Positions 1-423 of a DNA stretch of 44,244 nt are shown in pieces. The translations under genes and the position numbers were made by a program. The notes under the pieces were generated by a model. That model had not been told where the DNA came from and made no database searches. It saw only the letters and a list, made by a program, of their open reading frames with translations. Numbering within the stretch: the first letter of the stretch is position 1; every line of letters begins with the position of its first letter. The DNA is from a virus. Its lineage: Duplodnaviria; Heunggongvirae; Uroviricota; Caudoviricetes. The stretch spans positions 1-44,244 of IMG/VR virus record IMGVR_UViG_2896595138_000007; one strand, written 5' to 3'.

Positions 1-423
1 ATGAAAGAAACAGAAAACTTTGATGTTTTTATATGCCATGCAAGCGAAGACAAAAAAGACATTGCAATTCCAATATATGACGAGTTAACTAAACTTAAAA
101 TTTCAGCCTTCATAGATCATGTTGAGATAAAATGGGGCGACTCCTTAATTGATAAAATAAATGCAGCACTAGTTAAATCAAAATATGTCATCGCTATTTT
201 ATCTGCTAATTCAGTCAATAAGGAATGGCCTCAAAAAGAATTAAGAGCAGTTTTAGCCAGCGAAATATCGAGTGGCGACGTAAAACTTTTAACCTTATTA
301 AAAAAAGAAGACGAGGAGGTCGTAAACCTATCATTACCTTTACTTAGTGATAAGTTTTATATGGTCTATGATAATAATCCTGAAGTAGTCGCCAACAATA
401 TTAAATCACTCTTACAACGATAA
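1..423 (+). CDS. TIR-domain protein (putative NAD+-consuming defence or effector protein)
   Basis: 140-aa ORF. N-terminal DVFICHASEDK and central SANSVNKEWPQKEL match the bacterial TIR signature (DxFISxxxxD ... SxxSxxSxWCxxEL with conserved Glu). Strongly AT-rich, unlike neighbouring phage genes; convergent with the tail-fibre operon. Confidence 0.75.
   Translation: MKETENFDVFICHASEDKKDIAIPIYDELTKLKISAFIDHVEIKWGDSLIDKINAALVKSKYVIAILSANSVNKEWPQKELRAVLASEISSGDVKLLTLLKKEDEEVVNLSLPLLSDKFYMVYDNNPEVVANNIKSLLQR

Follow-up and report, generated by a model that had tools for sequence, protein, structure and literature searches.

An apparent TIR-only gene beside the tail fibre genes of a lambdoid prophage is very probably the 3' end of a retron reverse transcriptase-TIR fusion gene

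INTRODUCTION

Does a short TIR-domain reading frame at the edge of a lambdoid prophage encode a protein that acts in its own right, or is it a piece of a larger gene? The question is raised by the first 423 bases of the stretch of DNA analysed here (44,244 nucleotides, called the window below), in which a plus-strand open reading frame begins with ATG at base 1, ends with TAA at 421-423 and specifies 140 amino acids. An interpretation made from the letters alone (the sequence-only reading) had taken this frame to be a gene of its own, a TIR-only, Thoeris-like component. We find that the 423 bases are very probably the 3' quarter of a single-gene Retron-TIR (type XII) system and not a separate gene.

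RESULTS

An AT-rich TIR reading frame adjoins the tail fibre genes

The features at this end of the window are the following.

1..423, plus strand: very probably the 3' part of a retron RT-TIR gene (codons 395-534 and the stop codon; end of the linker and the entire C-terminal TIR domain)
22..51, plus strand: DVFICHASED, codons 8-17; beta-A strand and start of the first helix of the TIR fold, the domain's most conserved motif
238..240, plus strand: codon GAA, E80 (E474 of the full protein); putative catalytic Glu of the TIR NADase site, in K-x-W-P-x-K-E-L
442..478, no strand assigned: perfect 10-bp inverted repeat, TGTGCAGATT / AATCTGCACA, starting 19 nt past the stop codon
607..837, minus strand: remnant of a Pin/Gin-type recombinase (tail-fibre invertase relic), between the retron and tfa
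868..1458, minus strand: tfa, tail fibre assembly protein (Caudo_TAP, 2.1e-43; ~94% identical to lambda tfa)

The frame contains both DVFICHASEDK and SANSVNKEWPQKEL, the motifs that had led the sequence-only reading to see a bacterial TIR signature, and profile searches confirmed that the signature is genuine (Pfam TIR_2, E = 1.6e-19, 71 bits against a cut-off of 28; Pfam TIR, 3.2e-12). Its GC content is 32.2%, compared with 48.1% for tfa and 51.2% from position 868 to the end of the window, and it is convergent with tfa because tfa lies on the minus strand. The earlier description of an AT-rich moron, convergent with tfa and set beside the tail-fibre module, was thus accurate: positions 1-423 are AT-rich foreign cargo of a lambdoid prophage, in the slot that adjoins tfa at its tail-fibre end.

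The inverted repeat at 442..478 may be a transcription stop between the convergent units. A consensus scan of positions 1-1000 found no terminator, the repeat going unscored because it lacks a T-run, and found promoter-like sites at chance level only. The recombinase remnant has two stops in the window and is annotated as "recombinase family protein, frameshifted" in E. coli PT109 and S30; this relic suggests that an ancestor had an invertible tail-fibre segment, now lost.

The frame matches the C-terminal end of RT-TIR fusion proteins

The 140 residues cover positions 340-477 only of the 478-position PADLOC model RT-TIR_XII (3.9e-41, 139 bits) and positions 334-464 only of the 464-position NCBIfam model NF042941, the equivalog "TIR domain-containing anti-phage reverse transcriptase" (cut-off 600 bits). 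They are identical, at 100% protein identity, to the C-terminus of WP_005025120.1, and base 1 of the window corresponds, in frame, to the first base of codon 395 of a 534-codon gene. Because the model matches are confined to the C-terminal ends and the frame remains open upstream, the 140-residue frame is not a whole gene; what had been read as a gene in its own right corresponds to codons 395-534 of an RT-TIR gene.

The wider DNA points the same way. Positions 1-1450 of the window recur in 35 complete E. coli genomes at 97.5-99.6% identity, and in nearly all of the matches listed the annotated feature under the match is an RT-TIR fusion gene. At the E. coli PT109 and S30 loci (99.4-99.6% identical) the full gene, 1605 nt long, encodes WP_005025120.1 and stands in the order prfC, dinI-like gene, RT-TIR, frameshifted recombinase remnant, tfa, stfR, lom and J. 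WP_005025120.1 carries Pfam RVT_1 at residues 97-298 (3.2e-19) and TIR_2 at 403-499, so that the C-terminal TIR_2 domain is fused to a reverse transcriptase (RT). The protein scores 670.9 bits against NF042941, above the cut-off of 600, and 3.7e-187 against RT-TIR_XII; PADLOC RT-Toprim_I-C matches it as well (5.7e-107). The closest solved reverse transcriptases to the RT part are those of Ec67/Eco2 (1e-41, residues 63-321) and Ec86 (2e-33), and the closest solved match of the TIR part is AbTir.

Some 1.18 kb of the gene, the noncoding RNA described below and the dinI-like gene lie outside the left edge of the window. The RT part, the RNA and a frameshift were seen in contig CP026845.1 (L005), which is identical to the window across all 10,423 comparable bases, that is, over 10.4 kb compared of 44 kb, and has the same split macro-domain gene, split tail fibre gene and IS4 element inside J. 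The RT domain with its YADD motif occurs in the same polypeptide as the TIR domain, beyond the window, in L005 and L001. The sequence-only reading had itself named, as a result that would refute it, the discovery that the frame is the tail of a longer and unrelated gene; the longer gene was found, which goes against that reading, although its function is related rather than unrelated.

A putative msr-msd RNA precedes the gene

In L005, about 190 nt upstream of the RT start and on the same strand, begins a region flanked by a perfect 10-bp inverted repeat, a1/a2 (CGGCTCTGCC/GGCAGAGCCG, at 8631-8640 and 8757-8766), with arms 116 nt apart. The RNA that it encloses folds with z = -3.0 relative to shuffles. 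Homologues of the gene in four other genera (Salmonella, 66% protein identity; Yersinia, 56%; Pseudoalteromonas, 46%; P. aeruginosa, 41%) are each preceded by a non-coding gap in which an inverted repeat has the same geometry. The a1/a2 arms show compensatory changes (GGCTCTGCC/GGCAGAGCC against GGCTCCACC/GGTGGAGCC, and GCAGCACCCC/GGGGTGCTGC in Pseudomonas), and in the five-sequence alignment 6 of the 11 a1/a2 pairs have changed on both sides. The RNAs of L005 (8631-8766) and of the homologous loci L015, L016 and L018 share a stem-loop with the loop GUUGUUUCGC on a covarying stem, and the motif GCRYAARGUGAUUGGG immediately 5' of a2.

An upstream, same-strand RNA bounded by a1/a2 was thus found in all five sequences, which lend modest support to reading the region as the msr-msd architecture expected of a retron. 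An Rfam scan of L005 8100-10900 returned no model match, CRISPR-DR6 reaching a chance-level 23.9 bits against a gathering score of 39. Mestre et al. (PMC7736814), who describe type XII as an RT with a C-terminally fused TIR_2 domain, give the RNA type for this clade as "nd". Put together, the complete unit very probably consists of an msr-msd RNA of ~135 nt closed by a1/a2, then ~55 nt, then the 534-codon gene, in which residues ~62-394 form a retron-type reverse transcriptase with a YADD active site and residues ~400-534 an AbTir-like TIR domain. The unit is AT-rich cargo (32.5% GC) in a slot that the prophage does not need for its own functions, with the tail fibre genes on one side and, on the other, a dinI-like gene that ends the prophage next to prfC.

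The TIR domain keeps the residues and fold of NAD+-cleaving TIRs

The glutamate that the sequence-only reading had picked out, E80 (E474 of the full protein), held up on alignment: it falls on the Glu of "WtnyEL" in the NAD+ hydrolase AbTIR and of "WParEL" in BtpA/TcpB, and together with W470 and P471 (W76 and P77 of the frame) and the RT motif YADD it is invariant in all 117 homologues, which range from 41 to 99% identity. Residues 402-411 of the full-length protein are near-invariant across the same 117; in an alignment of 40 homologues no change is seen at F10, H13, A14 or E16, and conservation reaches 90% or more at D8, C12, S15 and D17. An AlphaFold2 model of the 140 residues, made with 40 sequences, has a pLDDT of 81.3 and a five-stranded alpha/beta fold. 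Its best PDB match by Foldseek is the AbTir TIR domain with 3AD (7uxu; E = 1.3e-10, TM 0.84/0.88, rmsd 1.9 A), so the predicted fold, too, came out as had been proposed. With a TIR fold and a conserved catalytic Glu, the domain looks catalytically competent on alignment and model, and we infer that it cleaves NAD+.

A free-standing TIR gene fits the evidence poorly

Could the 140 residues nonetheless be a free-standing TIR protein that works with a separate upstream partner, as in Thoeris, either producing a signal as ThsB does or acting as an NADase effector? Resemblance to ThsB is real: both have a TIR domain with the catalytic Glu, and there are weak matches to PADLOC ThsB (best 2.4e-16, 58 bits) and to the Thoeris type III model ThcB4 (31.5 bits against a cut-off of 220). 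These scores are far under thresholds, however, and the RT-TIR_XII match is far higher. The ATG at position 1 follows an AAGGA by 9 nt, as a genuine start might, but residue 395 is Met in only 49 of the 117 homologues and Lys in most others; we therefore do not regard Met395 as an alternative start that the family conserves. Gene callers report a product of exactly these 140 residues on 13 contigs, identified by exact look-up, yet in all 13 a frameshifted or otherwise mutated RT part lies directly upstream, and in the identical DNA of L005 no stop interrupts the frame upstream of window base 1, which is open over 479 codons in total. Since every one of the 13 contigs has lesions in the RT part, the "TIR-only gene" is a by-product of broken fusion genes, and the 140-residue TIR gene is a gene-caller artefact.

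The search for a partner gave a similar result. The frame is no free-standing ThsB, as it runs upstream into an RT domain, and no neighbouring ThsA (SIR2-SLOG, or TM/macro) accompanies it. The 10 kb of L005 that precede the window hold the dinI-like gene, prfC, osmY, ytjA, yjjU, yjjV, yjjW and yjjI but no ThsA-like gene with a SIR2, SLOG or macro domain, nor is there one beside the homologues in the four other genera. The expectation that a partner would lie just past the window edge was right as to direction, in that something does lie upstream, but not as to its nature, since what lies there is the remainder of the same protein, 394 N-terminal residues with the retron reverse transcriptase, together with the RNA. 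The window's own macro-domain gene was a further candidate for a ThsA-like partner, which we rejected because it is encoded on the other strand, within the stf-tfa operon, and is found too in a prophage that has a SLATT gene and an RT instead of the retron (L014). A free-standing TIR is in our judgement extremely improbable, and the TIR fused to an RT in one polypeptide takes the place of the TIR-only, Thoeris-like reading.

This copy carries a frameshift in the RT part

In L005 the RT-TIR gene starts at 8820 and has a 1-bp deletion at about nucleotide 135 of the gene (codon 45), where a run of five C is reduced to four at 8955-8958. Translation from the annotated start ends at a TGA at 8967-8969 after 49 codons, and the gene is divided into open reading frames at 8790-8969 and 8984-10423; the latter opens with a TTG, has 479 codons and ends at the window's stop codon. 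L005 thus lacks an intact reading frame, which concerns function in this strain and not the identity of the family. For this gene its gene table holds the 140-residue call alone, with nothing called across the RT part. The other 12 contigs with this call all have lesions in the RT part, mostly frameshifts (692del, 464del, insertions).

The frameshift probably explains how the window came to begin where it does: gene callers report the 140-residue piece alone, and its start would have become the window edge. The window appears to have been cut at gene-call boundaries, because position 44244 is the start codon of the integrase just as base 1 is the start of the 140-residue call. The AAGGA before Met395 and the atypical AT-rich composition probably account for the callers' choice of an internal Met.

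Whether the retron still works in this strain is a separate matter. The prophage is decaying and riddled with IS elements, and this copy of the gene is most likely a pseudogene, a conclusion that is less certain than the assignment to Retron-TIR because the deletion is in a homopolymer, the N-terminus is poorly conserved and the TTG might allow re-initiation. If the deletion in the C5 run were a sequencing error, or if translation resumed at the TTG (codon 56, 14 nt downstream of the premature stop) to give a 479-residue protein with the whole conserved core, the retron would be functional here. Within the family the N-terminal ~60 residues differ in length and show little conservation, and the family models begin at residue 62-66; everything downstream of residue ~61 is intact in L005, with YADD and E474 present, and the RNA is unchanged relative to intact alleles. 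The same 1-bp deletion, however, is also found in another assembly (L006), which speaks for a true mutation passed on by descent, and no obvious Shine-Dalgarno-like sequence precedes the TTG. Other genes of the prophage are damaged as well (two 1-bp insertions in the macro-domain gene, the split stf, IS4 in J), and independent inactivating lesions are common in RT-TIR genes, including IS1 (as in E. coli F1053, L003), ISSen4 and other frameshifts. A functional retron in this strain is, on balance, unlikely, though far from negligible. The more specific idea that the frameshifted allele, present in at least two assemblies, is kept alive, as a shortened but complete RT-TIR made from the TTG or as a lone TIR made from Met395, is a long shot; if a lone TIR were made, it would be freed of msDNA control and might be, for example, a constitutive or differently triggered NADase. 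A frameshifted, most likely inactive Retron-TIR is the reading that we retain for this copy.

The retron occupies a prophage slot in E. coli and other settings elsewhere

Of 5426 complete E. coli genomes, 83 (~1.5%) carry the unit of RNA and RT-TIR gene at an identity of at least 99%; most of the 83 copies are intact, and several are split by IS1, ISSen4 or frameshifts. A search of 50,697 deposited phage genomes gave no match to the retron DNA, distant mode included; phage records match tfa only. None of the complete E. coli genomes combines the retron with a macro-type tail-fibre locus as the window does.

In other genera the RT-TIR homologues are single genes in unrelated contexts. Those of Salmonella (L015 1055-5608) and Yersinia (L016 989-5635) directly follow the alpha primase of P4-like satellites, from which they are separated by a non-coding gap of ~600 nt with the putative RNA, and those of Pseudoalteromonas and Pseudomonas lie among housekeeping genes. 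With hosts that include a lambdoid prophage and P4-like satellites, the same retron type is therefore found on two kinds of mobile element.

The slot between the dinI-like gene and tfa was also seen with other contents. In a prophage of E. coli R8 (L014 994-2893) it holds a SLATT_5 protein and a reverse transcriptase that is Drt3a-like (112.8 bits, under the cut-off of 200). Because different prophages carry different RT-based cargo in the same place, these loci suggest that the dinI-like-to-tfa slot of lambdoid prophages is a hotspot for defence cargo, and they document it as a site of alternative RT-based defence cargo.

DISCUSSION

Retron-TIR is already known: it is named, experimentally validated and represented by its own NCBI equivalog model. 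As a known and validated system whose exact element occurs in ~1.5% of complete E. coli genomes, the locus carries little weight as a discovery. It has more to say as a caution, in that a boundary set at a gene caller's start codon made a fused, frameshifted retron effector domain look "TIR-only". The locus shares with type XII the sequence of the last 140 residues, the layout of RNA, RT and TIR, and the prophage slot by prfC, as in the 35 complete E. coli genomes; it differs in that the window holds the TIR part only and in that the source allele has the 1-bp deletion at codon 45.

Members of the family are reported to produce msDNA and to protect against phages (PMC7736814, PMC7699616, 10.1101/2022.06.09.495361, PMC11350192). 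According to the account given in PMC7736814, which cites Gao 2020, anti-phage defence by Retron-TIR requires the fused domain. The Gao construct, a Retron-TIR of Shigella dysenteriae NCTC2966, restricts T5, and the phage protein Atd1 partly neutralises this retron (10.1101/2022.06.09.495361). In a survey of TIR systems, cells with an E. coli "TIR-Retron" released few or no progeny phages, and defence was lost when the conserved residues of the NADase active site were mutated; phages that escaped had mutations in the SSB and the primase-helicase, and the phage SSB showed mild toxicity in cells with TIR-Retron but not in cells lacking it (PMC11350192). The literature thus shows for the family that Retron-TIR protects E. 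coli by abortive infection, for which the fused TIR and its active-site residues are needed. A full-text literature search found no mention of WP_005025120.

The authors of PMC11350192 describe the mechanism of the retron TIR as unknown; in the literature that we searched we found no biochemical or structural mechanism of Retron-TIR, the biochemistry of retron-fused TIR domains being still unpublished there, and among the solved structures searched there was none of a Retron-TIR. The best available model is the msDNA cage of Eco2 (Ec67; type I-C, RT-Toprim; PDB 9lm3, 9i2f), in which the fused Toprim nuclease stays caged in a scaffold of branched msDNA and is released once a phage nuclease breaks that msDNA down (PMC12916289). 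Eco2 has the closest solved RT and is likewise a single-polypeptide retron with a C-terminal effector and an upstream RNA, but its effector is a Toprim tRNA nuclease and not a TIR. By analogy, the RT would make msDNA from the RNA, and the complex of RT and msDNA would hold the fused TIR domains inactive or unassembled. Phage replication proteins might then perturb the msDNA and release the TIR domains, which would assemble, hydrolyse NAD+ through E474 and abort the infection. Both the caging step and the NADase chemistry are steps that we infer from Eco2 and from related TIR domains.

The nearest relatives of the TIR part itself are the NAD+ hydrolases AbTir, BtpA and TcpB, with ~33% identity across the domain and the shared motifs FI(S/C)HASEDK and W-x-x-x-E-L; the model superposes on a subunit of the AbTir-3AD filament. 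Those proteins have N-terminal coiled-coil or other regions and act alone or as virulence factors, whereas here the TIR shares its polypeptide with a retron RT and msDNA presumably controls it. Thoeris ThsB is more distant in organisation, since here there is no separate ThsA and the TIR is not free-standing.

Several further features of the prophage deserve a brief record. A macro-domain gene (1461-2365, minus strand) lies between the side tail fibre gene and tfa and is split by two 1-bp insertions into frames of 115 and 186 residues; an intact version, WP_000631346.1 (300 aa; Macro, 5.9e-19), is encoded by the E. coli R8 prophage. The C-terminal ~130 residues of this protein are Cys-rich, with GxHxH tail-fibre repeats. 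There is a weak match to DarG (2.7e-4). The protein is possibly an ADP-ribose hydrolase that serves counter-defence, or else a fibre-associated protein. An IS4-family transposase at 6868-8094 (DDE_Tnp_1, 6.3e-32) interrupts the tail-tip gene J (5982-10817, minus strand) and cuts off a 167-residue C-terminal receptor-binding fragment, and the side tail fibre gene (stf) is split into frames of 683 and 283 residues; with J interrupted and the side tail fibre split, the prophage cannot make normal tails. An IS3-family transposase (27963-28781, minus strand; rve, 3.1e-26, and HTH_21) in the late-regulatory and lysis region again points to a Shigella-like genome rich in IS elements. Near the Q antiterminator (31268-32020) is an N6/N4 DNA methylase (29608-30660, minus strand; N6_N4_Mtase, 2e-42), which is ordinary lambdoid cargo.
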